Source: a virus
Lineage: Duplodnaviria > Caudoviricetes
Direction: 5' to 3' (one strand)
Virus record (IMG/VR): IMGVR_UViG_3300036770_008730
Length of the DNA stretch: 64,000 bases
In this document: piece after piece, positions 60 to 60,039 of the stretch
Position numbering within the stretch: the first letter of the stretch is position 1
Layout: every line of letters starts with the position of its first letter
Notes under the pieces: generated by a model
Told to the model about the DNA's origin: nothing
The model's input: only the letters and a program-made list of their open reading frames with translations
Database searches by the model: none
Translations under genes and position numbers: made by a program

Positions 60-719
60 CTAAGTTACCTTAATTGATTTGAAATCTAAAGTTGGTAAAA
101 CTTCTTTTATTACCTTAGTTGCTTTTTTGATATATTTTGCTTTATCATCATAAAAGATTGCTTTCTGAAATCCTGTTTCTTTTATAATCTCAACTATCTT
201 TTCTCCTTTCCAGTGTCCTGCATTTTTTCTACCAACTGGCATCATATGTAGTCCATATTTAGGTAATTCTAATCCTAATGTTTTTAAAGTCTGAGATACT
301 TTATCTCTCATAGTTTCAACTCTTGCTGTCACAATACACTTCTCTTCTACTGATTTGTATAATTTTACCATTTCGTCTTTAACTGTTGTTGGTAAGCTAA
401 TATTTGACAAATAAAACTCATTTGGACTTACCATATAGATTCTCTTACCTTTTCTAACCCAATAATCTTGTATCTCTGGTATAGACATTTCTGGATCTTC
501 GATAAAGATTCTTCCATTTTCCCATTTCAATTCTTGCTGACTTCTCTTAATTTTTTTCAATGATAGGTCTATGATTTCACCTACGGTGAGATCCTCCTTT
601 AAATATTCGATTGCTAATTCTTCAAAATCCGGACTTTCAACTAAAGTATCATCAAAGTCAAAAATATAGAGAGTGTCTTTATTCTCTACAAATTCAAAAT
701 ATTTTTTAATCTTTGTCAT
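60..719 (-). CDS. HAD-superfamily phosphatase-like protein with N-terminal capsid-targeting-like motif
   Basis: FDFDDTLV (HAD motif I DxD), VTAR (motif II), K...FYDD (motifs III/IV); N-terminus MTKIKKYFEFVE. Confidence 0.7.
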   Translation of the reverse strand: MTKIKKYFEFVENKDTLYIFDFDDTLVESPDFEELAIEYLKEDLTVGEIIDLSLKKIKRSQQELKWENGRIFIEDPEMSIPEIQDYWVRKGKRIYMVSPNEFYLSNISLPTTVKDEMVKLYKSVEEKCIVTARVETMRDKVSQTLKTLGLELPKYGLHMMPVGRKNAGHWKGEKIVEIIKETGFQKAIFYDDKAKYIKKATKVIKEVLPTLDFKSIKVT

Positions 720-888
720 TGAAAAACTCGTCTATAAGACCACTATAATTTGTTCCAAAGTGTTCTATACACTTATTATATATTTCTTCTTCAAGTTCGA
801 TTCCTTCTTGAATTAGTCTTTTTACAAAATTTTCAATATCTTCAACTGAGTTGTAGATGTTGAATTCGTCATAGTCGTGAATTAGCAT
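706..888 (-). CDS. hypothetical protein (start refined from 936 to the ATG at 888)
   Basis: ORF track 706..936; the AAATATATAAG element lies inside the longer ORF upstream of ATG 888 (MLIHDYDEF). Confidence 0.55.
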   Translation of the reverse strand: MLIHDYDEFNIYNSVEDIENFVKRLIQEGIELEEEIYNKCIEHFGTNYSGLIDEFFNDKD

Positions 889-997
889 GGTGGTTGGATT
901 ATTTTTATAACTTATATATTTATAAAAAACCAACAAAAAACCTATTTTTCAAACTAAAACAGAAAAAAAAATATAAATTTTAGAAAAAAAATTATAA

Positions 998-2668
998 TTG
1001 ATGTCATTAAAAAAAGATTTAGCTAAATACAAGCCTAGAAAAGAACAAAAAGAGGCTCTTAATTTCATTGAAACTGAATATCAGAAAAATAAACTTAACA
1101 AGTTTTTTTTACTTAATTTACCCGTTGGAGTTGGTAAGTCACACTTAGCACTTATGATTGCTGATTGGTATCGTAGGAATATAAATAAAACCGCTAAGGT
1201 TGATATTATTACTAACAGTAAGATATTGCAAGACCAATACTCAAATACTTATCAATCTGTCTGTGATTTAAAGGGTAAGGAAAACTACGAATGTGATTCT
1301 TATTCTACTTCCTGTGCTCAGGGAGCTGAGTTTAATAGACTTAACAAAACAAGTTGTGAGAATTGTCCTTATACTTATGCTAAAGATTCTTTTATTGCTG
1401 GTGATATTTCATTAACTAATTTTTATCTTTTTATACTTTATGCTATCTATAATCCTAAATTGATGGAGAATAGAGATTCTAGAGTTTTGATAGTTGATGA
1501 AAGCCATGAGTTTGATGATGTGATGTCTGATTTTATCACTATAAGAATTACTGAAGGTGTTGTAAAAAAATTCAAATTTTCAAATGAATCTGATATACTT
1601 AAAAGATTAAAAGCTGTAACTACCATAAGTCAATATATCGACTTTTTGAGATACTTGAATACTGAGATTGCTGATACTATAGAAGATATGGAAAAAGGCA
1701 TGGGTAGTCAATCAAGAAGTGTTAGACAGGATAAAAGAGACTTGAAGATTTCTAAATTACTGAAAAGTAAAAATTCCGATGTTAAGATTATGCAATTAGC
1801 ATCTGATCTTCGCCAGTATCAATTAAAAATAGAAATCTTCTTAAAAGAATATAAAGAGAATCCTAATAATTGGGTATTGGAGTCTGGTTATAATGAGAGA
1901 ATGAAACAAAAAGAACTATCATTAGAGCCAATATGGGCTTATGATTATTTAGATAAGTATGTTTTTAGTAAGTACGATATGGTTTTTCTAATGTCTGGAA
2001 CCATCCTAGATAAAAGTTTATTTTGTCAACTTAATGGACTTGATGTCACTAAGGCGGTTTATTATTCAATTGGTTCTCCATTTCCTCTTAAAAATAGGAT
2101 GATATACTATATGCCTTTGGGCAAGATGTCTTATAAAAGTAAAGAAGATACATTTCAAAGATATATCCCTTATATCAAAAAACTATTGGATAAATATAAA
2201 AACAAAAAAGGTATCATACATACCAACTCTTTTGAATTGGCTAGATGGATTGAAGAAAAAATTAAAGATCCAAGGTTAATTTTTCATGATTCTTCAAATA
2301 AAGATGAGATGTTGAAGATGCATAAGGAATCCGAAGAAGCTACAGTAATAGTTAGTCCTTCTATGGATACTGGCGTTTCGTTTGATAATGATGATGCTAG
2401 ATTTCAAATTATTGCAAAAGTTCCTTATCCTAGTTTAGCATCACAGAAAAACAAATTAAGACAATCTAATAATCCTGAATGGTATTCTTGGAAAACAGTT
2501 TCTGGATTGATACAAATGACTGGTAGACCTGTTAGATCTCATTTAGACTATGCTGATACTATTATCTTAGATGGTTCTTTTGGAGATGTGATGAAGCATT
2601 CTTCAAAGTTTTTACCTGATTGGTTACAGGAGGCAATAAAAAGAATTAATGTAAAAATAGAAGCATAA
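998..2668 (+). CDS. DinG/XPD(Rad3)-like SF2 helicase
   Basis: Walker A-like PVGVGKS, DESH motif II, SGT motif III, Cys cluster C..S..C...C..CPY (possible Fe-S), C-terminal G.SF...ARFQII.K.PYP and QMTGRPVR typical of helicase_C_2. Confidence 0.85.
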   Translation: MMSLKKDLAKYKPRKEQKEALNFIETEYQKNKLNKFFLLNLPVGVGKSHLALMIADWYRRNINKTAKVDIITNSKILQDQYSNTYQSVCDLKGKENYECDSYSTSCAQGAEFNRLNKTSCENCPYTYAKDSFIAGDISLTNFYLFILYAIYNPKLMENRDSRVLIVDESHEFDDVMSDFITIRITEGVVKKFKFSNESDILKRLKAVTTISQYIDFLRYLNTEIADTIEDMEKGMGSQSRSVRQDKRDLKISKLLKSKNSDVKIMQLASDLRQYQLKIEIFLKEYKENPNNWVLESGYNERMKQKELSLEPIWAYDYLDKYVFSKYDMVFLMSGTILDKSLFCQLNGLDVTKAVYYSIGSPFPLKNRMIYYMPLGKMSYKSKEDTFQRYIPYIKKLLDKYKNKKGIIHTNSFELARWIEEKIKDPRLIFHDSSNKDEMLKMHKESEEATVIVSPSMDTGVSFDNDDARFQIIAKVPYPSLASQKNKLRQSNNPEWYSWKTVSGLIQMTGRPVRSHLDYADTIILDGSFGDVMKHSSKFLPDWLQEAIKRINVKIEA

Positions 2669-2670
2669 AA

Positions 2671-2700
2671 AAATCCACCTTAAAGGTGGATTTATTTTTT
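2671..2700. terminator. bidirectional intrinsic terminator
   Basis: AAATCCACC-ttaaa-GGTGGATTT flanked by A and T runs between convergent genes. Confidence 0.8.
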
Positions 2701-3538
2701 AGTTTAGACTGGGTTTTGCTACATTTCCAGTATTTATTTTAGATTTTATAAAGTCTAAGTATTTAATAACATTTTCTGGTTTTTTAACTTTTTGACCTTT
2801 TACTAAATTACTTAGTCTATCGACTGCATCATAAGCTGTTGTTCTTTTTAAAGTTTTCAAATCAGTTTCTACATCTTTAGTTTCGTCAAAGTTTAATTCC
2901 GATTTGGCTTGATTCATTAGTCTTGTTCTTGTTCCTTCTCCAGGAGAATCATTTTTACCAAGTTTTTTTTGTTGAACTTTCCAAGCTGTAACTAATTCTT
3001 TGTATCTTTTTTCTACTTCGGGATTGGTTTTTTGTTGATTTTTTGATACTTCGGACTGTGCTTGTTTCATTAATCTAGCTCTCGTACCTTGTCCAGGAGA
3101 TTCGTTCTTTCCAAGTTTTTTTTGTTCAGCTTTCCATTTTGATACTAACTCTTTATACTTTGCATCTACATCTGAATTTAGTTTAGAATTTCCATCAACC
3201 CCGGGGGTTTCTTGTTTTGAATTTTCAGATTCTGCTTGTGAATTTACCTCTTCTGGCTTAACATCCTCTGGCTTAACATCCTCTGGCTTAGACTCAGATG
3301 GTTTGTTATTCTGATCTTTTTTAGGATCTTTCCATCCTTTGACCTCTCCTTTTTTACCTACAAACATTTTTCCAATGGGTTTTCCAGTTTCATCAACCTC
3401 TTGAAATTTCAATACTTGAGGATTTTGAGGAATACTTCCCACAACTTTAACTTTTTTACCATTAATTAACCAGAACTTACCTTTTTCAAAAAAGTTTACC
3501 GCCTCATTGAACATTTCGTATTTATTCAGATACTTCAT
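2699..3538 (-). CDS. hypothetical protein with internal repeats and capsid-targeting-like N-terminus (start refined to 3538)
   Basis: MKYLNKYEMFNE; KPEDV x3; two copies of YKELV..WK..QKKLGKN.SPG.GTR.RLM.QA.SE. Confidence 0.7.
   Translation of the reverse strand: MKYLNKYEMFNEAVNFFEKGKFWLINGKKVKVVGSIPQNPQVLKFQEVDETGKPIGKMFVGKKGEVKGWKDPKKDQNNKPSESKPEDVKPEDVKPEEVNSQAESENSKQETPGVDGNSKLNSDVDAKYKELVSKWKAEQKKLGKNESPGQGTRARLMKQAQSEVSKNQQKTNPEVEKRYKELVTAWKVQQKKLGKNDSPGEGTRTRLMNQAKSELNFDETKDVETDLKTLKRTTAYDAVDRLSNLVKGQKVKKPENVIKYLDFIKSKINTGNVAKPSLN
3252..3290. repeat. 15-nt tandem repeat, about 2.6 copies, encoding KPEDV repeats
   Basis: tctggcttaacatcc tctggcttaacatcc tctggctta. Confidence 0.9.
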
Positions 3539-3542: not shown

Positions 3543-4055
3543 TTATTTTTTCTTTTTTGCTTCAATAGCTTTTAATAAAGCTGGTGGTAATTTTTTCTTC
3601 TGTTTATCTGAGGCCTTAGAATCTTTTTCATCTTTTTTACCACCTTTTTTCTTATTCTCTATTGCAGCTGCAATAAAGTCACCTTTTGTGATTTTATTTT
3701 CTGGTGGATATTTTTTTGCTAATTCCTTTTCTTTTTCATTTTTTGGATTTTTTCCTTCTGATTTTTTCTCAAGAAAAGAATTGAATTTTTCAACATATAC
3801 CGGATTTCCCATACTTGGTGTTGAAGGATCATTTTCTGAACCAATTACTTCATCTCCCCAAAAACGGTCTTCTTCCTCCTCATATCCTTCTTCATCTTCA
3901 CCGGTTCCACAAGGTTTACATTCTTCTTCCTTTTCCTCTTCTGGTGTGTTTGGTCTAGTTAAATTTGGAAATCCATTAGGATTTGTTTCTTCTTCACTAA
4001 ATCTACCATAGTCTGGTTGATTGAGGAAATTTTCGAATGCTTTTATGTGTCTCAT
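3543..4055 (-). CDS. hypothetical acidic/basic low-complexity protein with capsid-targeting-like N-terminus
   Basis: MRHIKAFENFLN; TAATATATA upstream; Glu-rich middle and Lys-rich tail. Confidence 0.7.
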   Translation of the reverse strand: MRHIKAFENFLNQPDYGRFSEEETNPNGFPNLTRPNTPEEEKEEECKPCGTGEDEEGYEEEEDRFWGDEVIGSENDPSTPSMGNPVYVEKFNSFLEKKSEGKNPKNEKEKELAKKYPPENKITKGDFIAAAIENKKKGGKKDEKDSKASDKQKKKLPPALLKAIEAKKKK

Positions 4056-4111
4056 GTTTAAGTGATAATTTTTATAAAGTATATATTATTTTTTTATTTT
4101 CATTTTTCCTA

Positions 4112-4124
4112 TTTTAATATATAA
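4112..4124 (+). promoter_or_regulatory. phage-specific (probably late) promoter motif TTTAATATATA, representative copy
   Basis: Same or near-identical motif shortly upstream of many starts, e.g. 4055-, 5231+, 14967-, 17071+, 25464-, 26801-, 26887+, 34393+, 36753-, 37519-, 38408-, 44855+, 46809-, 52842-, 53737+, 60569+, 63306+. Confidence 0.7.
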
Positions 4125-4129: not shown

Positions 4130-5104
4130 ATGAGATTATTAAGATTTTTAGATTTTATTCTGGAAGCCGCATCTGATAAGTTACTTCCTTTCAGAGCTAG
4201 TAGTGATTTCGAAAAGAAAATAGATGAGATAGACTCTGCAATAGCTACTAAGTTTAGTCAGTATATTAGGTCTAGATACCCAAGTAAGTATACTCTAATA
4301 ACCATTTCAGATGAGGGAAATATTCAATACTCGGACTCTTATAGAGTAGATGAGTTTAAACAAAAAGAACTTGGTGAAGGATATCCTACTGATAGGTGGT
4401 TGAATTATTTCCCACCAAATCCATCAGATGAGATATTTTCTTATCGTAGGATTGAAATAGGTGTTGGTAAATTTATTAATAAAATATTCCCGGGTGATTT
4501 TAGCGCATCTGAAATAGAAAATTTTGTGAATCAATGGAGATCTTTAAGTGAAGTTCGCCCCAATTTTGAATTATGGTCTGGATATGAAATAAGAAGAGGT
4601 TATAGGTCCACTAACTATCATTATACAGATACTAATATGAATACTCTTATGAACTCATGTATGAATGATCAATTAGATTGTATAGAGATGTATGAGTATT
4701 GTCCTGAGTTAAGACTTTTGGTTTTATTGGATGATAATAATCACATACTTGGTAGGGCCCTAATTTGGAAAGACCATCAAGGTAGGTATATAATGGATAG
4801 AGTTTATTATGTTTATGATAGTGATTATCATAAATTCTTAAAATACGCTAAAGAGAATGGTTGGTGGTATAAAAAAAGAAATATAAGCGGTGGTTCATCT
4901 TTTATCAAAGATGATAAAGAAATGAGTCTCGATACAAAAGTGAGAGTTCCTGATGTATTTGATGCTGAATATAGAGGTGATAAATTTCCATATATGGATA
5001 CTTTTTTCTATGCTCAGGGAGAATGGGCATATAATAATCCACCGGATGAGGGTAGATATTTAAAATTGACCGATACCGAAGGTGGATTTGAAATATTCGA
5101 TTAG
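4130..5104 (+). CDS. conserved phage protein of unknown function, paralog of 50870..51832
   Basis: MRLLRFLDFILE; shared blocks NSCM, RAL.W, MDR.Y, PY.DTF. Confidence 0.75.
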   Translation: MRLLRFLDFILEAASDKLLPFRASSDFEKKIDEIDSAIATKFSQYIRSRYPSKYTLITISDEGNIQYSDSYRVDEFKQKELGEGYPTDRWLNYFPPNPSDEIFSYRRIEIGVGKFINKIFPGDFSASEIENFVNQWRSLSEVRPNFELWSGYEIRRGYRSTNYHYTDTNMNTLMNSCMNDQLDCIEMYEYCPELRLLVLLDDNNHILGRALIWKDHQGRYIMDRVYYVYDSDYHKFLKYAKENGWWYKKRNISGGSSFIKDDKEMSLDTKVRVPDVFDAEYRGDKFPYMDTFFYAQGEWAYNNPPDEGRYLKLTDTEGGFEIFD

Positions 5105-5230
5105 TGGATCAAAAACAAATAACGAGATACCTGTGAAAAAATCGAATACTTTGTGATTGGTCAAATGGTGCTATTCTCAAATATTTAGTGATGATAAATT
5201 TAACTCTCAAAAAAAATAATATATACATTC

Positions 5231-6214
5231 GTGCAAATAAAAAGATATAGTCAGTATTCACTTGAGGAAAGTTTAGTTGATGATTTCTTATCGTCTTTTA
5301 ATGATTTACTTGTTGAATCTAGTGGTTCTGATACTGATGAGTTACAACAACAGATAATATCGAGATTCAAAGAAAGATTTGGAGAAGTAACTCCTTCTAA
5401 TCAAGATTTTGCAGACTTTTATCACGAACTTCGAAACGAAGGTATAGATGGTATACTTATTTTTAACACTTTAGATCCATTTTTAAAAGAACCTGAAGAA
5501 AAGTCAGGAACAGGAACATTAACTGATTCATATAAAAGAGTAGAAAAAAAAGTTCTTTCTGATTTAAGACTTGATACTAAGTTAGCTTTAACATTTGGTG
5601 CAGGTATTGGTGCTATGTATCCTATAGTTTCCAAGTTGATGCAGAATATGAATATAAACTCAATCGAATTAACTACCGAGACGGTTGTCCTTTTGACAAT
5701 TGCTGCTTTAACAATAGTTTATTTAGAGGAAAAGAAAGATATATCAGTTGAAGAAAGAGAAAAACTAACAAAGGATTCTAAGTCAATGTTGGAGGAATTA
5801 AGGATGAGAAGTATAGGTGATGGTATTGTTAAAAAGATTATTAAAGCACTTACTTCGGTCAAAAATATATTCTCACTTATTGGTAAACATATAGGTGCTG
5901 TCATAGGTGGTATAATTGATATGTTTTCATATACGGCTATTCTTATTCCAATTATGAATGCTATTTTATTCTTAATAGGTAAATATGAACTAACACCAGA
6001 TACAATAGTTCAAAACTTCTTTTCACTTGGTATGGGTGTTGCGTCTAAGATAGCTAAACATGGATTGGTAGAATTAATAAGTAAGTTAAAGAATAGATTA
6101 AATATTAATAAAGATAAAGTTTTAGACGAGATAGAAACTCCAGTTATTCAAAGGTTTTCAAATTATATAGATCAAGATCCTAAACAAGATGGTGAATTGA
6201 TTAAGGAGCAATAG
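5231..6214 (+). CDS. putative membrane protein with capsid-targeting-like N-terminus (GTG start)
   Basis: MQIKRYSQYSLEE; hydrophobic segments LALTFGAGIGAMYPIV, VVLLTIAALTIVYL, IGAVIGGIIDMFSYTAILIPIMNAILFLIG. Confidence 0.65.
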   Translation: MQIKRYSQYSLEESLVDDFLSSFNDLLVESSGSDTDELQQQIISRFKERFGEVTPSNQDFADFYHELRNEGIDGILIFNTLDPFLKEPEEKSGTGTLTDSYKRVEKKVLSDLRLDTKLALTFGAGIGAMYPIVSKLMQNMNINSIELTTETVVLLTIAALTIVYLEEKKDISVEEREKLTKDSKSMLEELRMRSIGDGIVKKIIKALTSVKNIFSLIGKHIGAVIGGIIDMFSYTAILIPIMNAILFLIGKYELTPDTIVQNFFSLGMGVASKIAKHGLVELISKLKNRLNINKDKVLDEIETPVIQRFSNYIDQDPKQDGELIKEQ

Positions 6215-12121: not shown

Positions 12122-12160
12122 TTAAACTTTTTTAATTTTTAATTAAACTTTTTTAATTTT
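12111..12160. repeat. 21-nt tandem repeat, about 2.4 copies
   Basis: ttaatttttaattaaactttt at 12111 and 12132, partial copy at 12153. Confidence 0.75.
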
Positions 12161-12227
12161 AATACTATAAATAATCCACCTCTGAAAAAAGAGAAATTTT
12201 AGAGGTTGATATATACAAAACAAATTC

Positions 12228-12237
12228 GTTCTTTAAC
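12228..12237 (+). promoter_or_regulatory. boxA-like antitermination element (putative)
   Basis: GTTCTTTAAC resembles the boxA consensus TGCTCTTTAACA; lies just after a GATATATAC promoter-like element and before the structured leader. Confidence 0.4.
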
Positions 12238-12253
12238 TTATTGAAACAATATT

Positions 12254-12570
12254 CCAGTAGCGAATTAAAGAGATACTTCGAGGTTTATGAAAAAAAACTC
12301 TTTAATAATTTACTCTGGTCAATATATAAAAAACAGACATAGTGATAGTTTGAGATACATCGTTTTAAACTACAATTCAAAAAAAAAGTGTCCGCTAATT
12401 AGCAAGACTACTGATGTCCGAGATTGAATACTCTGACTATAAGTGAAAAAATTCAGATAGCACTCTGTAAAAGGCTAAGGAATTCATCAAATTCCTTTAA
12501 ATAAATGGATGTGAGAGATGTACTTGTAAATATCGACAAAGTTTTGAGAGAATTCTTTGTGACAACTTAG
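12254..12570 (+). ncRNA. putative TROVE/Ro60-associated structured RNA array (Y-RNA-like)
   Basis: Non-coding; related hairpins with (A/G)TAC(T/A)T-type loop motifs (GAGATACTTCG 12270, GAGATACATCG 12352, GAATACTCTG 12426, GATGTACTTG 12517); TGTCCG...GACTA twice (12389-12410, 12415-12439); directly upstream of the TROVE gene. Confidence 0.55.
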
Positions 12571-12602
12571 ACTAAGTTTTCTTGTTTGTTAATTATTAAA
12601 AT

Positions 12603-12641
12603 GACCAGATTAAATTAATTTTTAATCTGGTCTTTTGTTTT
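12603..12641 (+). terminator. intrinsic terminator immediately upstream of the TROVE gene (possible attenuator)
   Basis: Perfect 12-bp stem GACCAGATTAAA-ttaatt-TTTAATCTGGTC followed by TTTTGTTTT, about 30 nt before the ATG. Confidence 0.75.
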
Positions 12642-12673
12642 AAAATACTTATTAATAAATAAAAATAGAAATT

Positions 12674-14125
12674 ATGGCAAAATTTAATGCAACCTTACCG
12701 AAACAAAAAACTTTAACCACTAACTTAGCTGGTGGTAAAGCTTACAAACAATCAGAAGAAATGGCTTTTCTTTCTTTGATATTAACATCTTTTGTTAATG
12801 ACCAGTTCTATCGTGGTGCTGATACCTCAATAGACGAGTTAAAGCAAATGGTCTCTAGTATCAAAGACAAAGAGTTTATGGCAAAGGCCGCTGTTTATGC
12901 TAGAGATAAGTTTGGTATGAGAAGTATTACACATGCTCTCGCTGGTGAATTATCATCTCACCTAACAGGTGCTGAATGGGGTAAAAACTTTTATGATAAA
13001 GTAGTAATCAGACCAGATGATATGACAGAAATCTTATCTTATTATTTAGAGAATAAAACTGATAAGAAAAATCCTAAGTTTCCAAATGCTATTAAGAAAG
13101 GTTTTGCTAAAGCTTTTGATAAGTTTGATAACTATCAAATAGCTAAATATAAAAACGAGAACAAAGAGTTTAAGTTAGTTGATGTTGTTAATCTGGTTCA
13201 CCCATCACCTAATACTAGAAACAAATCCGCTTTAGAATCTTTAATCAAAGGTGAGTTGAAAAATACTCAAACTTGGGAGTCTAAGTTGTCTTTAGCTGGT
13301 CAGTTAGCTGAGACAGAAGAAGATTTAACAAAGTTAAAATCGGATGCTTGGTCTGAACTGATTCTATCTAAGAAAATTGGATATATGGCTCTGTTAAAGA
13401 ATTTGAGAAATATTATTCAACAATCACCTGATTCGGTAGATTCGGCTTGTGAATTACTTACTAATGAAAGTATGATTAAATCATCAAGAGTTCTTCCTTT
13501 CCGTTTCACAACCGCTTATGAAGAATTACAAAAGTTAGATTCATCTGACCTTACTCGTAAAGTGATTATTGCACTTAACCAGGCTTTAGAAACATCACTT
13601 TGTAATGTTCCTAAGTTAGATGGTTCTACTTTGGTAGTTTTAGATGTTAGTGGTTCAATGATGGGTAAACCATCTGAGATTGCTTCACTTTTTGGAGCGG
13701 TGTTAGCTAAAGTAAACAATGCTGATGTCCTAACATTCTCAACTGACTCTAACTATCTTTCTTACAATCCAATTGATTCGGTATTAAGTATTAGAGAAGG
13801 ATTTAGATTTGCTGGTGGTGGAACAAACTTTCCATCAATCTTTAGAAAAGCGAATAAGTCCTACGACAACATAATAATTCTGAGTGATATGCAAGGTTGG
13901 ATTGGTGGTGATACTCCTGTTAATGAGTTTAATGCTTATAAGAAAAAGTATGGTTGTAATCCTCATGTATTTTCTTGGGATTTAGCGGGTTATTCAACTT
14001 TACAATTTCCCGAGAATCAGGTGTATTGTTTATCTGGTTTCTCTGATAAAGTGTTTCAAGTGATGTCTTTGTTAAAAGAAGATAAACAAGCACTTATTAA
14101 TCAGATTAAACAGATCCAGTTGTAA
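12674..14125 (+). CDS. TROVE-domain (Ro60/Rsr-like) RNA-binding protein with vWA domain
   Basis: N.AGGKAY, F.AKAAVYAR...GMRS, RPDDMTEIL, QTWE..LS, YMALLKNLRN, SRVLPFRF, MIDAS DVSGSM, GGT, IILSDMQ. Confidence 0.92.
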   Translation: MAKFNATLPKQKTLTTNLAGGKAYKQSEEMAFLSLILTSFVNDQFYRGADTSIDELKQMVSSIKDKEFMAKAAVYARDKFGMRSITHALAGELSSHLTGAEWGKNFYDKVVIRPDDMTEILSYYLENKTDKKNPKFPNAIKKGFAKAFDKFDNYQIAKYKNENKEFKLVDVVNLVHPSPNTRNKSALESLIKGELKNTQTWESKLSLAGQLAETEEDLTKLKSDAWSELILSKKIGYMALLKNLRNIIQQSPDSVDSACELLTNESMIKSSRVLPFRFTTAYEELQKLDSSDLTRKVIIALNQALETSLCNVPKLDGSTLVVLDVSGSMMGKPSEIASLFGAVLAKVNNADVLTFSTDSNYLSYNPIDSVLSIREGFRFAGGGTNFPSIFRKANKSYDNIIILSDMQGWIGGDTPVNEFNAYKKKYGCNPHVFSWDLAGYSTLQFPENQVYCLSGFSDKVFQVMSLLKEDKQALINQIKQIQL

Positions 14126-14196: not shown

Positions 14197-14967
14197 TTAT
14201 CCGTTGTAGTAGTAATTGAAGTCCTCTTCAATATACCATTCGATTGAAGCCTCTACTTCTCCCCAATCTATAGTAAAGGTTTTTGATTCATTATCATATT
14301 CACCAATTCCATAGATGTCATCTTCAGTGACAAATCCAACCATGATTATATCTTCTTGAATATTGTAATCTAAATACTTTTGTAAGTTTATACCAGTGCC
14401 AGTAACAGTTTGTCTTTTGTAATAATCTGTGAGTTGTTTTATACCTCTTTGGAATTCTGGTGTAAATTTTGATTTATTTAAATAATCGGAATATACTTTA
14501 TCTAATTCTTCCTTTTTGATAGTATCTGATTCAAACTGAATATCGAATCTATATTTGATTAGTTCATTTGATACCGTGCTTAAGTAATCGTTCTTTTTGA
14601 GTTTTATTCCTTTTTCAGAAACTCTACTAATCATAGGTTCAATAGAACCAATTATCATTGATAGCTTAGATTGTATTTGTTTGAATTGTTCGAACGTTCC
14701 GTTTTTTTCGGATAAGAATTGAATTGATATGCCATATTCAATTTTATATTGTTTATCTTTTTCTAAATCTACATTAATAATGTGTCCTCTTTCATCAACA
14801 ATATGACAACTTTTTGTGATTTCGAAATCTTTGTCATCTATTATATCCCATAAACTATCTTCAAATTCTGACCAATCTAAAGATTTAGACTTAATAAAAT
14901 CGTTTAATTCTCTGGATATACCAAATGATTCATTAATAAAAAAGTTTTCAAATCTTTTAATTTTCAT
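14197..14967 (-). CDS. hypothetical protein with capsid-targeting-like N-terminus
   Basis: MKIKRFENFFINE; TTTAATATATAC 4 nt upstream of the ATG. Confidence 0.7.
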   Translation of the reverse strand: MKIKRFENFFINESFGISRELNDFIKSKSLDWSEFEDSLWDIIDDKDFEITKSCHIVDERGHIINVDLEKDKQYKIEYGISIQFLSEKNGTFEQFKQIQSKLSMIIGSIEPMISRVSEKGIKLKKNDYLSTVSNELIKYRFDIQFESDTIKKEELDKVYSDYLNKSKFTPEFQRGIKQLTDYYKRQTVTGTGINLQKYLDYNIQEDIIMVGFVTEDDIYGIGEYDNESKTFTIDWGEVEASIEWYIEEDFNYYYNG

Positions 14968-14982
14968 AGAGTATATATTAAA

Positions 14983-17010: not shown

Positions 17011-17070
17011 AGTTTTAAAATTAACAGAATGGTTATCAAAATTAATATATACTAAAAATTTACAGATTAG

Positions 17071-18750
17071 ATGCCAGGAACATTTAGTTTAAATATAGGT
17101 CAGCCTACAGAATCTTCAAGGAAGCAAACAATTTTTAGTGTTCTTCAGGATTTACCAAATAATACTCAAAAGTTAATTTCTCCAAAAGATGTTAGAGATG
17201 CTTTTTTATCTACTTGGTCAAATTCATCATTTAGAGTAACTACACCAGGCGTCTTATCGACCTCTGAATACATTGGGATTGATAGTGGTGATCCTTCCAA
17301 CAGAGACATAAAAAATAAGATTTTTATAGGTAAGAGAAGTTATGGTAATCTTGATATCATGACAAATACTCTACTAAATTCTGATACAGATATTTTCTTT
17401 TTTAACACAAAAGAAGATACTGCTACTCAGAGTTCAACAAAGTTGTCAATTTTAGCTGGAACTAATTCAGCTCTTTATTCTACCGCACCTTATATAGAAA
17501 GTGTAGTAAACTCATCAAATACAGGATTTGATTTGAATATTAAAAATCCATCTTTCTTTGATGGTCCTATAAATGTAACAAGTTTATCTGGAAGGGTATC
17601 TATAAATGGCATAGCTTTTCCAACTTTATCCGAGACTTCGGCTAGTGCATCTAATGGACTTATTTTAAGATATTTTGGTACCTATCCTAATGGTTATCTA
17701 CAATGGGAATTACCTACAGTTAGTGTGAGTAGTATAGGTGTTACTGGACTTCCAACTAATATTTATGGAAGTACTGTGAGTGTTAATGGATATCCTATTG
17801 AATTTATCGAAAATAATATAGTACCTATTACCTTAGGTGGTGTGACTCAAGGAGCTTCTTTTCCAGCTACCTCTTTTTATAATGGTTCTTCTTATCAGAA
17901 TTGGCCAATTGTAGAAGTTATTAGAAATATTCTATATCCTTATATTGAGCCCGATTTAACTCTTAATATTGATATTAATAATAGTGGTTCTATATATGCT
18001 GAAGTTGGAACAACTCCATCTATAACTATTACTTATTCGGTTACTCATTATGCTAGACAATCATCTGAAAATATTAGTTCTTTTATAATATCATCTAATA
18101 CTTCTGTTATTGAGGGAACAACCTACTCTGGTTCACCAACATTAAGCTTTGGTGGTATTCCAGGATCTTATTTTCATGGAACTGCTAGTGCGGCAACATA
18201 TAGTAGTGTTACCGGAACCACTGTTAGCTTTTACTCTTTTGCATCTAACTATTCTTCTGTTACTTTAGCTGGTTTCCCTTTATATTTTTCTTTTAGCGCA
18301 ACTGCTAGTATGAGATTTGTTAGCCCTGTTGTTGGTGGTTTTATATCTGGTAATACATTGAATTTTGATTTACAAACTTCTGGAAATACTAATACTCGAG
18401 AAAGTGTCGCTGCTTTAGTATATGGTCAAACTGTTTCAGTTAATAAGGCAATACTGCCATATCCTGGAGTATCTCAATCTATATTTGTATCAGCTACTGG
18501 TATCGGATACTTATATTTTGCAGTTCCTGGAGTTACGGAATATAATTTAGGTATACTTTCACAGATAAAAGATCCAAATGGGTATATTGTTCATGATTAT
18601 CAAAGTTATTCTTATTCAGCATTTACTTTTTCAAACAACGCAATATTACCTATAAGTCCATTTGATTATTACTCATCGTACAGAGTTTATAAAACTTATG
18701 CAACATGTAGTTATTATGGAGGAGGAAGTTTTGAATTAATATTTACATAA
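17071..18750 (+). CDS. putative virion structural (tail-associated) protein, paralog of the next gene
   Basis: S/T/G/Y-rich beta-type composition; TTAATATATAC upstream; many blocks shared with 18750..20243. Confidence 0.55.
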   Translation: MPGTFSLNIGQPTESSRKQTIFSVLQDLPNNTQKLISPKDVRDAFLSTWSNSSFRVTTPGVLSTSEYIGIDSGDPSNRDIKNKIFIGKRSYGNLDIMTNTLLNSDTDIFFFNTKEDTATQSSTKLSILAGTNSALYSTAPYIESVVNSSNTGFDLNIKNPSFFDGPINVTSLSGRVSINGIAFPTLSETSASASNGLILRYFGTYPNGYLQWELPTVSVSSIGVTGLPTNIYGSTVSVNGYPIEFIENNIVPITLGGVTQGASFPATSFYNGSSYQNWPIVEVIRNILYPYIEPDLTLNIDINNSGSIYAEVGTTPSITITYSVTHYARQSSENISSFIISSNTSVIEGTTYSGSPTLSFGGIPGSYFHGTASAATYSSVTGTTVSFYSFASNYSSVTLAGFPLYFSFSATASMRFVSPVVGGFISGNTLNFDLQTSGNTNTRESVAALVYGQTVSVNKAILPYPGVSQSIFVSATGIGYLYFAVPGVTEYNLGILSQIKDPNGYIVHDYQSYSYSAFTFSNNAILPISPFDYYSSYRVYKTYATCSYYGGGSFELIFT

Positions 18751-22502: not shown

Positions 22503-22577
22503 TGATTCTTCAAATTTATAATTTTAATTCTATCTTGATAGTATTTAGAATCATAATTACTGGAAATTAATGCATTT

Positions 22578-23255: not shown

Positions 23256-23291
23256 ATATAAATATATATATTAAAATCATAAATTAGTATT

Positions 23292-31038: not shown

Positions 31039-31044
31039 AAAAAT

Positions 31045-36042: not shown

Positions 36043-36084
36043 CTCTTTTTTATGGATTTTCATTTCAGATATGAATCATTGATT

Positions 36085-36753: not shown

Positions 36754-36767
36754 TTCTAAAGTATATA

Positions 36768-37519: not shown

Positions 37520-37535
37520 AGTGTATATATTAAAA

Positions 37536-42922: not shown

Positions 42923-42993
42923 GGTCTGGTGGTCGAGCGTTTAGACGGAGGATCGCAAATCCTTTTACGGTGGTTAGAATCCATCCCAGACCT
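42923..42993 (+). tRNA. tRNA-Cys (GCA), atypical C33 and T-loop, CCA not encoded
   Basis: Acceptor GGTCTGG/CCAGACC + U73; D stem GTC/GAC; anticodon stem GAGGA/TCCTT with loop TC-GCA-AA (anticodon 42955-42957); T stem GGTGG/CCATC with loop TTAGAAT. Confidence 0.8.
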
Positions 42994-43007
42994 CTAATAT
43001 AATATTT

Positions 43008-44854: not shown

Positions 44855-45424
44855 ATGGAAAAGTTTAGCAAGTTAAAACCAAAAGATGGTTTGAATATTG
44901 ATAGTAAAGACAAAGTAGTTTTTGACAGTGACCATTTTAAAATAGTTGATTTTGAGGATTGGCAAGTATTGAAGGATAGAGATTGTGTTGTTTGCATTCC
45001 ATACTTGATTGAAACAAATCAATTTGTTGTTAGATATGAATATATTCCTACCTTCAAATATGTAGATGGTCAAGAATATCATGTTACTGTTGTTGGTGGT
45101 GGTATTGAACTTGGTGAAACTCCACAGAAAGCAATGCTTAGAGAGTTAGAAGAAGAAGCCGGTATTGTTTTAAGAGAAGATTATAAATTAGAGGATATGA
45201 AACCTCTTTTTATCAGTAAGTCACACGCTAATAAGTATTATCCTTTTATTATTCCTCTTAATGATAGAGACTATCATGAGGTGATTGCGACTGGTGATGG
45301 TTCCGAAATTGAAAAGATTAGTAAATCAGTAAAAGTAGATATAAAGTATTTAAGTAATTTGAATCCTTCTGATTTAATCACTGATTATATGTTAATGAAA
45401 CTAAAAGAATACTTGAACATTTAA
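44855..45424 (+). CDS. Nudix hydrolase (ADP-ribose pyrophosphatase-like)
   Basis: GGGIELGETPQKAMLRELEEEAG; C-terminal GDGSE.E. Confidence 0.85.
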   Translation: MEKFSKLKPKDGLNIDSKDKVVFDSDHFKIVDFEDWQVLKDRDCVVCIPYLIETNQFVVRYEYIPTFKYVDGQEYHVTVVGGGIELGETPQKAMLRELEEEAGIVLREDYKLEDMKPLFISKSHANKYYPFIIPLNDRDYHEVIATGDGSEIEKISKSVKVDIKYLSNLNPSDLITDYMLMKLKEYLNI

Positions 45425-46809
45425 CGAAGTCCTGTATTGCCTTTTTCTAGATATCTTTTAAGTTCCGAAATTATTTCCTCATTTAGTTGTTTGTTATCAA
45501 CATGTCCATAATCTGAAAAGTATGGATCTAATTCATTTCTAAAGTAAGATTCATCACCCCACTCCACTAATAGAGTTCTTAATGATTTTGAGTTAATAGA
45601 ATCAGCATCAACTGATTCTAACCAATCATTAGTATATGGTAGAATATAATAAGTCATTTCTACTTTATATTCTTTCTTTTCCTTTTCACCTTCTTTATTT
45701 GTTATGAAGTAGTGTTTAGTTATTTCTTTTGTTGTCTTTTCAAAAGAACCAATATCATTACTAACTACTCTATCAAATGCTTGTACAATGTCTTTGTAGT
45801 TTTGATAAGCGTGTGCATCACACTCTGCTTGAGCAACTGCTGAAGTAACATCTCTCCAAACATCAGAGTCATTAAATTCTGTTTTAATCCATTTTTTTAA
45901 CAATTCATTGAATCTTTCATTTACAAAAAACTCAACAAGTTCTTCTTCTGTTTGAAAATCTTTTGGAAAACTATTTTTTGCTGATGTAACACTATTTTTT
46001 TCCCATTTTTTTACTTCTTCAAATCCACCAAATTCTTTAATAAGAGATTTTGCTAATAACTCTTTTGTTTCTTTATCAAATACATATGAAAACAAGCTGT
46101 TGATATCTTGCTCATAATCAACAGAGTAATAGTTGTCCCAGAAATCATCAATAGGTCCTTTGACTAATACATCTTTATAGCTTGATTTACTACTTAGTAA
46201 TATATCTGCCATATCTTCTATACTAACGTGTAGAAATACTTTATCACCTCTGAGCTCTGTATTTTCATCGATTTTTATATTGTAGTAATCTATGATGTCT
46301 TTTTCGGTCAGTTTAACTTCTTCTTTTTGTTTCACAAAAAGTGCGATATAATCATCTGCTCCTATATCTGAATCGCCACCTATTGAACTTTCATCAATCC
46401 ACAATCCACCTTTTATTCTAATTCTATCTAGTTCTAATTCACTAGATGAATCGTAAATACCTATGTCAGTGTTTGCCTCAACTGATATATAACTAACTGC
46501 AAATTTTAGGTTTGATGTTACATCTTCGTCCGTTATTTTATCTCCAGAAAATATCTTAATAAAGATGGCTGGTCTTTTATATTCACCTGCTAAAACCTTA
46601 TCAGTGAATACATCTTTACCCACATTAGATCCAAGTTTTGTCGTCATATTTCCTTTTTCAACAAATCCGAATTCAATTTCTAAAAAGTATCCTTCATCAG
46701 TAGATTCTAAAAACAATTCTTCAATGTCTTCTTTTGACATATTCCAAATTGATTTTTTAGATTCCTCAACTGATTCTTTTATGAAGTCGATATACTTTTT
46801 AAGTTTCAT
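45421..46809 (-). CDS. hypothetical protein with capsid-targeting-like N-terminus (start refined to 46809)
   Basis: MKLKKYIDFIKE; TTTAATATATA upstream. Confidence 0.7.
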   Translation of the reverse strand: MKLKKYIDFIKESVEESKKSIWNMSKEDIEELFLESTDEGYFLEIEFGFVEKGNMTTKLGSNVGKDVFTDKVLAGEYKRPAIFIKIFSGDKITDEDVTSNLKFAVSYISVEANTDIGIYDSSSELELDRIRIKGGLWIDESSIGGDSDIGADDYIALFVKQKEEVKLTEKDIIDYYNIKIDENTELRGDKVFLHVSIEDMADILLSSKSSYKDVLVKGPIDDFWDNYYSVDYEQDINSLFSYVFDKETKELLAKSLIKEFGGFEEVKKWEKNSVTSAKNSFPKDFQTEEELVEFFVNERFNELLKKWIKTEFNDSDVWRDVTSAVAQAECDAHAYQNYKDIVQAFDRVVSNDIGSFEKTTKEITKHYFITNKEGEKEKKEYKVEMTYYILPYTNDWLESVDADSINSKSLRTLLVEWGDESYFRNELDPYFSDYGHVDNKQLNEEIISELKRYLEKGNTGLR

Positions 46810-46842
46810 TATATAATATATATTAAAAATTATCAATATTAA

Positions 46843-47703
46843 ATGAAGTATTTGAAATTATATGAGGATTTTATGGAAGGTGAATCACTTCCAGGAGTTG
46901 ATATATCTCCGGATGAACAAAAAGAGCTACCGAGACCCTCAAAACAAATACTTTTAGATGGAACTTCAAGTTCTGGTAAAAGTGTAGCTTTAAAGAATTT
47001 AGGATCTGACTGGTGTGTTTTGGCGGCTGATGAGTTTTATGACTTGATTGGTGAAGATTTAGGTAAAGTTAATTTCAATAATAAACAAACTATTAGTGAG
47101 GTTTATCCAGATTGTCCTTATAAATTCTCAGAACCGGGTGGTGATAACTATGAGTTTGCTTGTAGGTGGTATATGGCTCAAGAAGTCAAATTTGGAAAAG
47201 TAAAATCTCTGGGTATGATTTCAAGAAATAAAAATATGGGTAGAAGTGATGAACAGATGAATATAATATATGATGATGTTCAGGGAACAATATTGAATGA
47301 GGTAACAAAAGCCGGACTTGCTAAACCAAAATGGATTTTAGTTCATGCTCCAATCGATCATTTAATCTCAAATATATTAAGCAGACCCGAAGGTGACCGC
47401 AGAGATCCAGAAGGTGTATTTTGTGGAGCTTATTGTTTTAAGTATGAAGCAAAACCTGAAAAAGGAGGAGTTGATCCTGAAAAATCTTGGACTATATCTT
47501 CGGTAAAAGAATTATTTAAAGATCAAAATTGGACCAATCTATTCTTAGATAAAGTCGGAATTAAAGAAGATGGTGTTGAATACTGGATGCATATTAAAAA
47601 TATGCCAGAAGGAACATATGATGTTATAGTAAATACAAGAAATGATGAAGGTGGTCAAAAGACAATTAGTGAAGTGGCTTCGGAAGTTAAAAGACATTTC
47701 TAA
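46843..47703 (+). CDS. P-loop kinase (chloramphenicol-phosphotransferase/AAA_33-like) with capsid-targeting-like N-terminus
   Basis: ILLDGTSSSGKS, LAADEF, IIYDDV, R...D.R lid; MKYLKLYEDFME. Confidence 0.65.
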   Translation: MKYLKLYEDFMEGESLPGVDISPDEQKELPRPSKQILLDGTSSSGKSVALKNLGSDWCVLAADEFYDLIGEDLGKVNFNNKQTISEVYPDCPYKFSEPGGDNYEFACRWYMAQEVKFGKVKSLGMISRNKNMGRSDEQMNIIYDDVQGTILNEVTKAGLAKPKWILVHAPIDHLISNILSRPEGDRRDPEGVFCGAYCFKYEAKPEKGGVDPEKSWTISSVKELFKDQNWTNLFLDKVGIKEDGVEYWMHIKNMPEGTYDVIVNTRNDEGGQKTISEVASEVKRHF

Positions 47704-49473: not shown

Positions 49474-50661
49474 GTGATTAAAAGCAAAGATTTCATACTC
49501 AATACATTTCTAACTCTTACCTCAGAAACTTATCCTTATGGCACTGAAAGTGTTATCTTTGATAAAATGGTAAAAGAAAATCTATTACCAGAAACTGTTC
49601 AGACCGACCAACATGGAAACTATTTCTTAAAGATTGGAGAATCTCGTACAATTTTCGCATCACATCTTGATACTGTTTGTAAAGAACACACACAGGTTGT
49701 TCACCAATTTGATGGTGATCTTATAAAAACTGATGGTAAAACTACACTTGGTGCTGATGATAAAGCTGGTGTAACTATCATGCTTTGGATGATTAAACAT
49801 AATATACCTGGATTATATTACTTTTTTATAGGCGAGGAAGTTGGTTGTATTGGTAGTGGATTAGCTGCTAAATATGGTGACTTCAAAGGTAAATATGATA
49901 GAATTATTTCGTTTGATAGAAAAGGTACAAATTCGGTTATTACTTATCAATCCTCAAGTCGTTCTTGTTCTGATGATTTTGCAAAACAATTGGCAAAAGA
50001 ATTGAACAAAAGTGGTCTTTCATATAAATTAGATGATACTGGTGTTTATACCGACTCGGCTGAGTTTGTTGATGTTATACCAGAGTGTACTAATCTTTCA
50101 GTAGGTTATTATTCAGAACATACATTTAGAGAAAGTCAAGATATAAAACATTTGACTAAATTGGCAAATTCTTGTCTTTTAGTTGATTGGGAAAATTTAG
50201 TCACAAAAAGAGATATGTCCAAAATGGAATTGAAGAGTATGTATACCAATACTTACTCAACTTATGAAACTTCTGATTGGAGAAATCGTGACCATGATTA
50301 TGGATACTCTTCCGGTTCAAGAAAAAAAAGAAATAGAAGAAGTAAATCTAAAAGTAGATACCATGATGATTGGTATGACCAAAATACCAGTTACAATAGT
50401 TACAACAACAATTGGACTTCTTTTGTTCCAGCTGGTAAATCTTATTATGATGGAGTTGATGGATTAGTAGAAGTAAAAAAATCTGATGAAAAAAACTTCT
50501 CATACTACTCTTATGATTGGATCATGACTAAATTTACCAACAAAGATTTAGATTATGATACTTTAATGACTATTAAAGACCAATACTTAGATATGAATAA
50601 TCCATCTGACAAAGAGTTTTATAAATATTTGTTAGATGTTGCTAGCGAGCAAAGTCTATGA
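49474..50661 (+). CDS. M28/M20-family zinc peptidase-like protein
   Basis: SHLDTV, GADDKAG, GEEVG, SFDR, YTDS, NLSVGYYSEH. Confidence 0.8.
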   Translation: MIKSKDFILNTFLTLTSETYPYGTESVIFDKMVKENLLPETVQTDQHGNYFLKIGESRTIFASHLDTVCKEHTQVVHQFDGDLIKTDGKTTLGADDKAGVTIMLWMIKHNIPGLYYFFIGEEVGCIGSGLAAKYGDFKGKYDRIISFDRKGTNSVITYQSSSRSCSDDFAKQLAKELNKSGLSYKLDDTGVYTDSAEFVDVIPECTNLSVGYYSEHTFRESQDIKHLTKLANSCLLVDWENLVTKRDMSKMELKSMYTNTYSTYETSDWRNRDHDYGYSSGSRKKRNRRSKSKSRYHDDWYDQNTSYNSYNNNWTSFVPAGKSYYDGVDGLVEVKKSDEKNFSYYSYDWIMTKFTNKDLDYDTLMTIKDQYLDMNNPSDKEFYKYLLDVASEQSL

Positions 50662-50854
50662 TGTCTGAAATATTTATATCTTCTTCAGGTGCATTAAAAA
50701 TTTTAGATTGTTCAATATTATGAGATATTTTGTATTTTCTTTTAGAAACTTTTTCAAGTATCTTTACAGGTGTAATCATATCATTATACCAGTATTGAAT
50801 AAGAACAATATCACCTTCTTTATAAAATGATTTATACTCTAATAAAAACTTCAT
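50642..50854 (-). CDS. small hypothetical (SH3-like beta) protein
   Basis: MKFLLEYKSFY; G.IV.I...PVKILE. Confidence 0.55.
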   Translation of the reverse strand: MKFLLEYKSFYKEGDIVLIQYWYNDMITPVKILEKVSKRKYKISHNIEQSKIFNAPEEDINISDIIDFAR

Positions 50855-59115: not shown

Positions 59116-59147
59116 AATTTGGTTTTCATAAAAAAATATATATCTAT

Positions 59148-59645
59148 ATGAAAAAGTTTAGCCAAATAGAAAGCCAAAATGAAGGTCTTAAAGAAAAGAT
59201 AGTTAGTGGTTTAGCTGGACTATCTATGTTAGTTTCCTCTTGTCAATCAATAACACCTGAAGAAAAACAAAGATTACAGACTGAGATTGAACATCTTAAT
59301 CAACAGCAGGATCATGATAAGAAAATGGTTAATTACTATGATGCTCAATCTAAAGATAGAATGTCGAAGGTTAGAGAACTTGAAGATGAAATAGGTGAGT
59401 TAGAAAAGAAATTAGGAATTCTAAAAACTGGAAAAAAACCTAAATTTATACTAAAGCTTCACCTTGAAGAAGGTGGATTGGACAATATTGGAAATTTTGA
59501 TAGATTACAATTTGATATTGAAATCCCTGTTGATGAAGAATATTTTAAAAAGTGTAAAGTTGGTGAGGAGCTAGCAAAAGATGTTAGACTTACAAACATA
59601 TTTCAAAACTGTAATCTGACTGTTGAAGATAAAAGAATGGAATAA
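59148..59645 (+). CDS. putative lipoprotein with capsid-targeting-like N-terminus (start refined to 59148)
   Basis: MKKFSQIESQNE then KEKIVSGLAGLSMLVSSC (lipobox-like VSSC), coiled coil. Confidence 0.6.
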   Translation: MKKFSQIESQNEGLKEKIVSGLAGLSMLVSSCQSITPEEKQRLQTEIEHLNQQQDHDKKMVNYYDAQSKDRMSKVRELEDEIGELEKKLGILKTGKKPKFILKLHLEEGGLDNIGNFDRLQFDIEIPVDEEYFKKCKVGEELAKDVRLTNIFQNCNLTVEDKRME

Positions 59646-59649
59646 CTCT

Positions 59650-60039
59650 ATGATAAAAAGATATTTAAATTTTATAGTTGAGGCTGATGAGGTTAACGTT
59701 GATAAATTGGAAACCGATCAATCTTCTTCATCCGATTTTATCGAGGTTAAGGATGAATTAATGTCGATGATTGAAGAAACTGCAAAAAAACAAAAACAAG
59801 AACCAAATTCATTTTTGAAAGAATTTCTAAAAAATCCAAAAGATGTTAAGATAGACGGTCTAGTAACAGATTCTGATGTATTTGAATTTTATAAAAAATG
59901 GGGAAATGATATTGATGAAATTTTGAATAAGATAAAATTTTTCAATGAAAGACCAAGTGATTTGAATGCAATAGGTTTATATAAATATCTAATAATTGCA
60001 ACCGAAAAGGCTATAGTAGAATTCCTAAAAACAAAATAA
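59650..60039 (+). CDS. hypothetical protein with capsid-targeting-like N-terminus (start refined to 59650)
   Basis: MIKRYLNFIVE. Confidence 0.65.
   Translation: MIKRYLNFIVEADEVNVDKLETDQSSSSDFIEVKDELMSMIEETAKKQKQEPNSFLKEFLKNPKDVKIDGLVTDSDVFEFYKKWGNDIDEILNKIKFFNERPSDLNAIGLYKYLIIATEKAIVEFLKTK

Follow-up and report, generated by a model that had tools for sequence, protein, structure and literature searches.

This study examines a 64,000-nucleotide stretch of viral DNA (IMG/VR record IMGVR_UViG_3300036770_008730; Duplodnaviria, Caudoviricetes), which as a whole is called the window; it is densely coding, has about 30% GC, and is part of an uncultured phage of about 0.6 Mb. About 20 unrelated proteins in the window begin with a common peptide of 9–13 residues, here called the tag, with the consensus M-K-x-(I/L)-K/R-K/R-(F/Y)-x-x-F-(I/L/V)-x-E, and the patterns analyzed concern this peptide, its likeness to the capsid targeting sequence (CTS) of phage T4, and a promoter-like box, TAATATATA, found in front of some of the genes that carry it. 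The relative used for comparison is LR745206.1, a 634,780-bp unannotated genome of an uncultured phage whose 238–281 kb region is gene-for-gene syntenic with the window, with protein identities of 30–83%. The genes at issue are as follows, with residues numbered from the start of each protein and matrix scores as described below.

60-719 (minus strand): strong tag, 219 residues; begins MTKIKKYFEFVENK, then a HAD-type FDFDDT at residue 20; leave-one-out score 10.8; weak DUF2608 and phrog_415 matches
2699-3538 (minus strand): variant tag, 279 residues; begins MKYLNKYEMFNEA; no family found in Pfam or PHROGs
3543-4055 (minus strand): strong tag, 170 residues; begins MRHIKAFENFLNQ; box at 4080-4088, 24 nt upstream
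4130-5104 (plus strand): strong tag, 324 residues; begins MRLLRFLDFILEA; box at 4115-4123, 6 nt upstream
5231-6214 (plus strand): strong tag, 327 residues, GTG start; (M)QIKRYSQYSLEE; box at 5217-5225, 5 nt upstream; predicted hydrophobic segments at residues 145-163 and 221-249
14197-14967 (minus strand): strong tag of the canonical long form, 256 residues; begins MKIKRFENFFINES; 16.9 bits; box at 14972-14980, 4 nt upstream; no family found in Pfam or PHROGs
22578-23255 (minus strand): atypical form, 225 residues; begins MKQKNRLILEFTEF; box 9 nt upstream
23292-23624 (plus strand): short-form tag, 110 residues; begins MKIKRFNESEE
24892-25464 (minus strand): two-part tag, 190 residues; MKRFSD...RINEQDE, a linker, then a DUF5856 (Dps-like) domain at residues 62-189
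25484-25690 (minus strand): strong tag, 68 residues; begins MKKFSKILENT
25674-26801 (minus strand): strong tag, 375 residues; begins MKIYRFEEFSINEK; HELNH at residue 167; box at 26807-26815, 5 nt upstream
26887-27246 (plus strand): strong tag, 119 residues; begins MVYIKKYKRFVEEF; 15.0 bits; box at 26854-26862
27265-28992 (plus strand): strong tag, 575 residues; begins MKSFDKFLKEEV; has no promoter of its own and is therefore taken as operon-internal
29002-31038 (plus strand): gapped tag, 678 residues; begins MKLFKYNQFLGLNSINEN; ankyrin-like repeats near residues 490-640
35419-36063 (minus strand): variant tag, 214 residues; a second ATG at 36042 gives MKKILNWKLFLEN; start uncertain
36085-36753 (minus strand): strong tag, the best in the window, 222 residues; begins MQKVKRYNDFINEE; 19.2 bits; box at 36762-36770, 8 nt upstream; C-terminal PQ-loop membrane domain with transmembrane segments at about 138-214
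36768-37082 (minus strand): short-form tag, 104 residues; begins MKHLKNFESLN
37079-37519 (minus strand): short-form tag, 146 residues; begins MKHLKNFNENL; box at 37524-37532, 4 nt upstream
45421-46809 (minus strand): strong tag, 462 residues; begins MKLKKYIDFIKES, its ortholog MRLKKYLEFIKES; box at 46817-46825, 7 nt upstream
46843-47703 (plus strand): strong tag, 286 residues; begins MKYLKLYEDFMEGE, then a Pro/acidic linker and the Walker A motif GTSSSGKS at residue 40; Atlas leads point to AAA_33/zeta-toxin-type kinases, which are about 40-100 residues shorter
50642-50854 (minus strand): variant tag, 70 residues; begins MKFLLEYKSFYKEG; 83% identical to its ortholog; box 5 nt upstream
59148-59645 (plus strand): claimed tag rejected; MKKFSQIESQNEGLKEKIVSGLAGLSMLVSSC reads as a lipoprotein-type signal peptide ending LVSSC; matrix score 6.3 bits
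59650-60039 (plus strand): strong tag, 129 residues; begins MIKRYLNFIVEADE; 13.2 bits

The first-pass annotation, which had claimed the tag at 25 open reading frame starts, was accurate as to the starts themselves, all of which are present as written, and less so as to the tags: about 13 are strong, eight are shorter or gapped variants (listed above as variant, short-form, two-part or gapped), and four are unconvincing. The last group comprises the starts at 888 (minus) and 44855 (plus, a NUDIX protein), where the claimed tags fail, the rejected signal peptide at 59148, and the atypical LILEFTEF form at 23255, which is nevertheless conserved in the relative. The variant form is likewise kept in the LR745206.1 orthologs, where these are present, for the genes starting at 23292 (plus), 25464 (minus), 29002 (plus), 37082 (minus) and 50854 (minus). 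A leave-one-out weight matrix placed 18 of the 68 window N-termini at p<0.01, where 0.7 would be expected. The relaxed pattern [KR].[FY]..[FYLIM].{1,3}E, starting within the first 7 residues, matched 11 of 68 N-termini; among internal windows the rate was 0.47%, and the 313 windows at internal methionines gave no match. With each N-terminus shuffled (5000 trials) there was a mean of 0.95 matches and a maximum of 6, which bears out the enrichment over shuffled controls that had been proposed as a check, and with columns permuted the mean was 2.3 and the maximum 8. An anchored pattern, M-x-x-Phi-K/R-x-aromatic or a form one residue shorter followed by an acidic residue, was found in 12 of 68 window proteins, 96 of 921 in LR745206.1, and 26 of 329 in the IMG/VR genome G001, compared with 1 of 234 in T4, none of 297 in Tenacibaculum phage PTm1, and at most 0.7% of internal Met sites. 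Altogether 127 of the 921 LR745206.1 proteins are tagged. Unsupervised expectation maximization (zero or one occurrence per sequence) on the N-termini collapsed to a general "MK..." composition model (gamma 0.44–0.60) and was discarded.

The proteins behind the tag have little in common. After removal of the first 22 residues, all-against-all BLASTP gave no match at E<1e-3, in agreement with the claim that the bodies are unrelated, while the body labels proposed at the same time fared unevenly: PQ-loop and DUF5856 lie above Pfam cut-offs, the ankyrin-like repeats slightly below, and HAD, HExxH and P-loop correspond to short motifs only (DxDxT, HELNH and Walker A). Judged from sequence, the architecture of tagged proteins is modular, with unrelated bodies, an extension of about 65 residues before DUF5856 that homologues in other phages do not have, and Walker A and HAD motifs shifted inward by tag and linker. 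Pfam and PHROGs gave no function for most tagged proteins. In LR745206.1 about 9 of 115 matched Pfam at E<=1e-5, and those that could be named include Sa_NUDIX, NUDIX, a PolyA_pol-type nucleotidyltransferase, a T4-type RNA ligase 1, a 2'-5' RNA ligase-type protein, an adenylate/guanylate cyclase, Peptidase_M15 and RNase_T. Genes for replication and nucleotide metabolism (helicases, ribonucleotide reductase, UvsX, ligase, methylase) lack the tag, as had been stated; the N-terminus of DnaB does score, through a chance-like resemblance that includes no Glu.

Several patterns indicate that it is the peptide that is conserved. In 11 pairs of orthologs from the window and LR745206.1, tags were 64% identical and bodies 45–49%, 33% of conserved tag codons differed synonymously, and substitutions within the tag were commonly K/R, F/Y and I/L/V exchanges. 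All members sampled from a clade of huge phages had tags, even where capsid identity was as low as 35%; in LR756500 they formed arrays of MKYIKEYEEFILE, and tags also occurred in several low-GC IMG/VR contigs. The density of the DNA pattern per 100 kb was 9–10 in the tagged clade compared with 0.9–1.7 in PTm1, MaF61, MA9V-2, PAU and Lak-B5, with pT24 intermediate at 3.8. PTm1 infects a Bacteroidota host and matches the clade in head module, with 30% GC, and that cultured relatives with the same head genes and GC do not have tags argues against an artefact of composition or translation. The tag is read here as a peptide signal because there are tagged genes without the box, because the pattern recurs inside head-module proteins, and because phages of the same phylum and GC lack it.

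The box TAATATATA occurs in 25 copies in the window (for example 14972-14980, 26807-26815 and 37524-37532 on the minus strand and 17043-17051 and 60533-60541 on the plus strand), 23 of them 4–27 nt upstream of a start. That most tagged genes are preceded by it is barely true, since this is so for 12 of the 22 main ones. Spacing to the start is bimodal, at 4–9 nt and 15–27 nt in the window, and is bimodal too in G001 and in LR745206.1 (191 copies), where the long class is 17–32 nt. In LR745206.1 the box lay within 45 nt upstream of 35 of 64 tagged compared with 106 of 857 untagged genes, an odds ratio of 8.6 (p 2e-14); the corresponding ratio in G001 was 7.9. Upstream of the protease-scaffold and capsid genes there are variants of the box. 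The Bacteroidota-type promoter TTG-N17-21-TAnnTTTG preceded none of 127 tagged and 33 of 794 untagged genes in LR745206.1 (p 0.01), in agreement with the earlier claim that genes under host-type promoters lack the motif. Box usage suggests that tagged genes are expressed late, along with head genes, and the timing fits; enzymes made so late would be most sensible if saved for the next round of infection. The T4 late sigma factor gp55 was looked for in LR745206.1 and G001 with no match, an uninformative result.

Head genes of the T4 kind were found in the relatives. In LR745206.1 the gene for a 707-residue protease-scaffold protein is immediately followed by a capsid gene of the gp23 family (PF07068, 88.7 bits; PF07068 is also above cut-off in both complete tag-bearing IMG/VR genomes). 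The LR745206.1 capsid protein groups with those of other uncultured phages of 0.46–0.74 Mb, with more distant matches to Prevotella Lak phages, a few cultured Bacteroidota and Sphingomonas phages of about 0.2 Mb, and T4-like cyanophages. The first 200 or so residues of the protease-scaffold protein align with T4 gp21 at E 5e-4, and the protease domain matches the annotated "prohead core scaffolding protein and protease" of PTm1 at E 2e-25; in all three the motifs NRNxRxY, xHP and SSRxxG line up, and the match to Pfam Peptidase_S77 (E 1e-4) is below the Pfam cut-off. The remainder, which is scaffold-like, contains 11 tandem 13-residue repeats, NIxYSEY(I/L)AENLDK, each with aromatic-x-x-aromatic-(I/L/V)-x-E, a pattern found 11 times here and at most three times in any other protein of the genome. 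Fusions with 11–14 repeats were also found in G001/LR756504 and LR756501, with degenerate repeats in the 462-kb phage LR756500; fusion loci of the clade lie at L085:18043-19941, L084:17487-19910 and W01 198546-200669. The fused protease has an I-I-E or L-I-E site at residue 9 of its own N-terminus, like T4 gp21 (LIE-9). The capsid propeptide of LR745206.1 contains SEYAEFHSINE, and all 13 strong long-form tags have a cleavage motif of the L/I-x-E type (FINE, FIKE, FILE, FVEE, SINE). From these sequences we claim that tag, capsid propeptide and scaffold repeats have one extended protease-site pattern in common. Internal copies of the pattern are not depleted, with 8 observed and 6.9 expected in tagged bodies and 57 observed and 40.5 expected in untagged bodies. 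A prediction of the complex between the G001 scaffold repeats and the first 40 residues of a G001 tagged protein scored 0.00 and is evidence neither way. IMG/VR rates the record UViG_3300012582_000005 (288,572 bp; L023-L037), which has inverted terminal repeats, as 100% complete. It has the same capsid N-terminus as the 636-kb LR756504.1 (L086), and its 764-residue protease-scaffold protein is equal in length and repeat count; the contig may be part of, or closely related to, a much larger genome.

The likeness to the T4 CTS that had been noticed at the outset holds at the level of individual residues. In T4 this sequence is carried by IPII and IPIII (MKTYQEFIAE), IPI and Alt and is removed by gp21 (Mullaney & Black 1996, reviewed in PMC9026906, PMC5694885), which cuts after L/I-x-E (PMC9026906) and works inside assembled proheads (PMC9026906, PMC5694885). 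For IPIII, ten N-terminal residues are enough to bring about packaging; residues 4 and 7 are the main determinants of targeting, and residues 8 and 10 those of processing (PMC9026906). In AF158101, IPII and IPIII start MKTYQEFIAEA and IPI starts MKTFKEF. The window matrix aligns IPII and IPIII without gaps as K-x-Y-x-x-F-I-x-E (KTYQEFIAE with K-R-Y-N-D-F-I-N-E), such that the four positions defined by mutagenesis, 4, 7, 8 and 10, correspond in the window tag to two conserved aromatics, a conserved aliphatic residue and the conserved Glu, in that order, and it ranks the two proteins 6–7 among 235 T4 N-termini, the set being the open reading frames of the first 150 of 169 kb. T4 gp23, annotated as cleaved by gp21, has aromatic-x-x-aromatic-(I/L/V)-x-E as FGSFLTE at residues 59–65. 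The cut falls after Glu65. The top T4 N-terminus by the window matrix, above IPII and IPIII, was that of gene 61.1 (L007:18966-19130, minus strand), a 54-residue hypothetical protein starting MKTFKEFIKED, which looks like an unrecognised CTS-type leader.

The shared N-terminus is best described, from sequence comparison, as a leader combining T4-type capsid targeting with a protease site, which a clade of huge phages has extended to a large part of its proteome, and we consider it probable, with real room for doubt, that it is a T4-type targeting propeptide in a massively expanded T4 system. The tag would form a short amphipathic helix with a hydrophobic or aromatic residue at every third position (4, 7 and 10 of M-K-x-Phi-K-x-Phi-x-x-F-I-x-E), which would dock a late-made protein on the scaffolding core during prohead assembly; the scaffold-fused gp21-type protease would then cut after the Glu of (I/L/V)-x-E, and the mature protein, freed within the head, would remain with the DNA. 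The clade has spread the tag to about one gene in seven, and the protein cargo packed by this phage is probably of unusual size. Docking, cleavage and packaging are steps that we infer, as is, more than any of them, ejection into the next host. A more specific version, which we hold tentatively and rate as somewhat short of an even chance, is that a clade of 0.3–0.74-Mb freshwater and subsurface phages uses what in T4 is a rare tag as a general address label on about one-seventh of genes, each virion delivering with its DNA about a hundred mostly unknown, fast-evolving proteins, the few that can be named including enzymes of RNA-repair, NUDIX, cyclase and kinase type, and that tag, capsid propeptide and scaffold repeats share a single extended protease site (aromatic P7, aromatic P4, aliphatic P3, Glu P1).

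Several observations weigh against this interpretation. The highest-scoring window tag belongs to an integral membrane protein, the PQ-loop protein starting at 36753 (minus), and the protein starting at 5231 (plus) also has hydrophobic segments. Short-form tags (MKHLKNFNE...), about a third of those claimed, have no cleavage motif or have F or N at P3, and without an aliphatic P3 cleavage there is doubtful. None of the cultured relatives examined bears tags, and the protease and capsid genes were located in relatives, outside the window. A matrix made from the scaffold repeats alone found 19 N-termini where 9 were expected in LR745206.1 (about 2-fold) and was not significant in G001; with prediction this weak, the link to the scaffold exists only at the level of a degenerate pattern, and specific mimicry of the scaffold by tags was dropped. 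To our knowledge, tagging of about one gene in seven (127 of 921) is also beyond any known packaged set and has no precedent. The interpretation of the first-pass annotation, a large virion-packaged cargo, was accordingly supported in part: the T4 likeness, the machinery in the relative and the box class fit it, and the membrane-protein tag and the short forms do not.

Some of these same observations could be accommodated if the tag were a substrate leader for a prohead-type protease, or an assembly helper, that carries no cargo address and instead times the activation or removal of late proteins, most of which would never be in the virion or not be ejected. This would account for the L/I-x-E ending of the long form, for tags on membrane proteins, and for a tagged set very large for cargo, but in T4 the site of gp21 action is the assembled prohead, and packaging needs no more than those ten residues (PMC9026906, PMC5694885), and the window tag conserves the T4 targeting positions besides the cutting positions; we regard this explanation as unlikely. 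Almost exactly as unlikely, and perhaps a shade more so, is an amphipathic helix used for some other sorting or quality control, by a phage chaperone, a membrane, or a replication or assembly compartment, with a convergent likeness to T4. The tag is short and amphipathic, two tagged window proteins are membrane proteins, and complex prediction gave no answer as to a binding partner, all of which would suit it; convergence would however have to reproduce all four functionally defined T4 positions, Glu included, in a clade that has T4-type protease, scaffold and capsid genes, and transmembrane segments across LR745206.1 were not enriched among tagged proteins (3 of 64, compared with 69 of 857 untagged).

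Selection at the level of mRNA has to be considered because of the promoter spacing. T4 late promoters start transcription a few bases downstream of the box, and if the same is true here the short spacing class would give leaderless or nearly leaderless mRNAs, raising the explanation that the first codons aid translation of leaderless or short-leader late transcripts in a host not using Shine-Dalgarno sequences. All nine window genes with the box 4–9 nt before the ATG bear a tag or variant, and in LR745206.1 40% of short-spacing genes are tagged compared with 9% of those without a box. On the other hand, 62 of the 127 tagged genes there have no box within 45 nt and are inside operons, synonymous codons vary within conserved tags while amino acid substitutions are conservative, the pattern recurs internally in scaffold repeats and capsid propeptides, and PTm1 and other Bacteroidota phages of equal GC are without it, so that we find this explanation improbable. 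Least probable of all, and scarcely to be expected, is that promoter and first codons are a recombination cassette spread by gene shuffling in hyperplastic regions, the peptide having little function. Tagged genes do form arrays, at 25464-31038 and 36042-37519 in the window and as the MKYIKEYEEFILE arrays of LR756500, and box and tag frequently travel together; but tags persist without the box, protein-level conservation across orthologs is greater in the tag than in the body while codons drift, and the consensus is kept across lineages whose capsids are just 35% identical.

Other features of the window are given here for completeness.

12674-14125 (plus strand): Ro60/TROVE and von Willebrand factor A (vWA) protein gene, with an ORF-free gap of about 550 nt upstream at 12122-12673
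17071-18750 and 18750-20243 (both plus strand): tandem paralogous large proteins (MPGTFSLNIG... and MATFSLNIG...), downstream of a TAATATATA box
42923-42994 (plus strand): tRNA-Cys (GCA) gene

Untagged genes that could be named are those for two helicases, ribonucleotide reductase, the Ro60/TROVE-vWA protein, an N6/N4 methylase, GH16, DUF6011, UvsX/RecA, a pyridoxal phosphate (PLP) enzyme, a metallophosphatase, NUDIX, a ligase and PhoH. Bacterial Ro60 genes frequently have Y-RNA-like genes as neighbours; an Rfam search of the gap at 12122-12673 gave no significant match. The tandem paralogues match no Pfam family, are duplicated and conserved in LR745206.1 too, and are probably virion proteins. 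All or nearly all sampled words of the stretch 22500-31100 were present in subsurface metagenome runs, from which the stretch probably derives, and 40–60% in several independent freshwater studies from 2022–2025; no RNA run was listed among the sequencing runs containing window DNA.

If the tag works as in T4, there are several implications. Sequence alone would reveal which proteins uncultured huge phages package and probably inject, and the packaged set would be about 30 times that of T4 and consist mostly of proteins without a family. Being mostly without known family, such a set would be a plausible reservoir of host-takeover or counter-defence functions, and it would partly explain the purpose of the extra coding capacity in huge-phage genomes. 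The tag, being short and portable, could also be used to bring foreign proteins into very large capsids.

Known systems resemble this one to different degrees, and the full-text searches made here turned up no paper linking capsid targeting sequences with huge phages or mega-phages. Closest is T4, in which, as in the window, the sequence is N-terminal, of 10–13 residues, with aromatic or hydrophobic residues spaced by three and then, in the long form, (I/L)-x-E, and is carried by unrelated proteins that are late-expressed (in the clade probably so, judging by box class), in genomes with gp21-like protease, scaffold and gp23-like capsid genes. The differences are that T4 tags a handful of proteins and the clade roughly at least 100 per genome (about 20 in the window), that the clade tag has 3 more residues and a basic K-x-Phi-K-K/R head, and has a common short form lacking the cleavage motif, that the clade protease is fused to the scaffold, and that some tagged proteins of the clade are membrane proteins. 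The phiKZ-like giant phages have inner-body or ejection proteins with propeptides, proteases such as phiKZ gp175 and SPN3US gp245, and S/A-x-E sites (PMC5694885, PMC9026906). They are likewise large, with about 50 head proteins and N-terminal propeptides cut after Glu by a gp21-related protease, but the propeptides are mostly longer than 100 residues with no single common short motif, the residue at P3 is small, and lineage and capsid genes are different. In phage P1, the first 30 residues of DarB suffice as a packaging signal (PMC9024508), and here too an N-terminal signal sends an anti-restriction protein, and reporter fusions, into the capsid; the P1 signal is however unrelated in sequence, is not a motif across many proteins, and belongs to a stepwise loading that depends on other Dar proteins.

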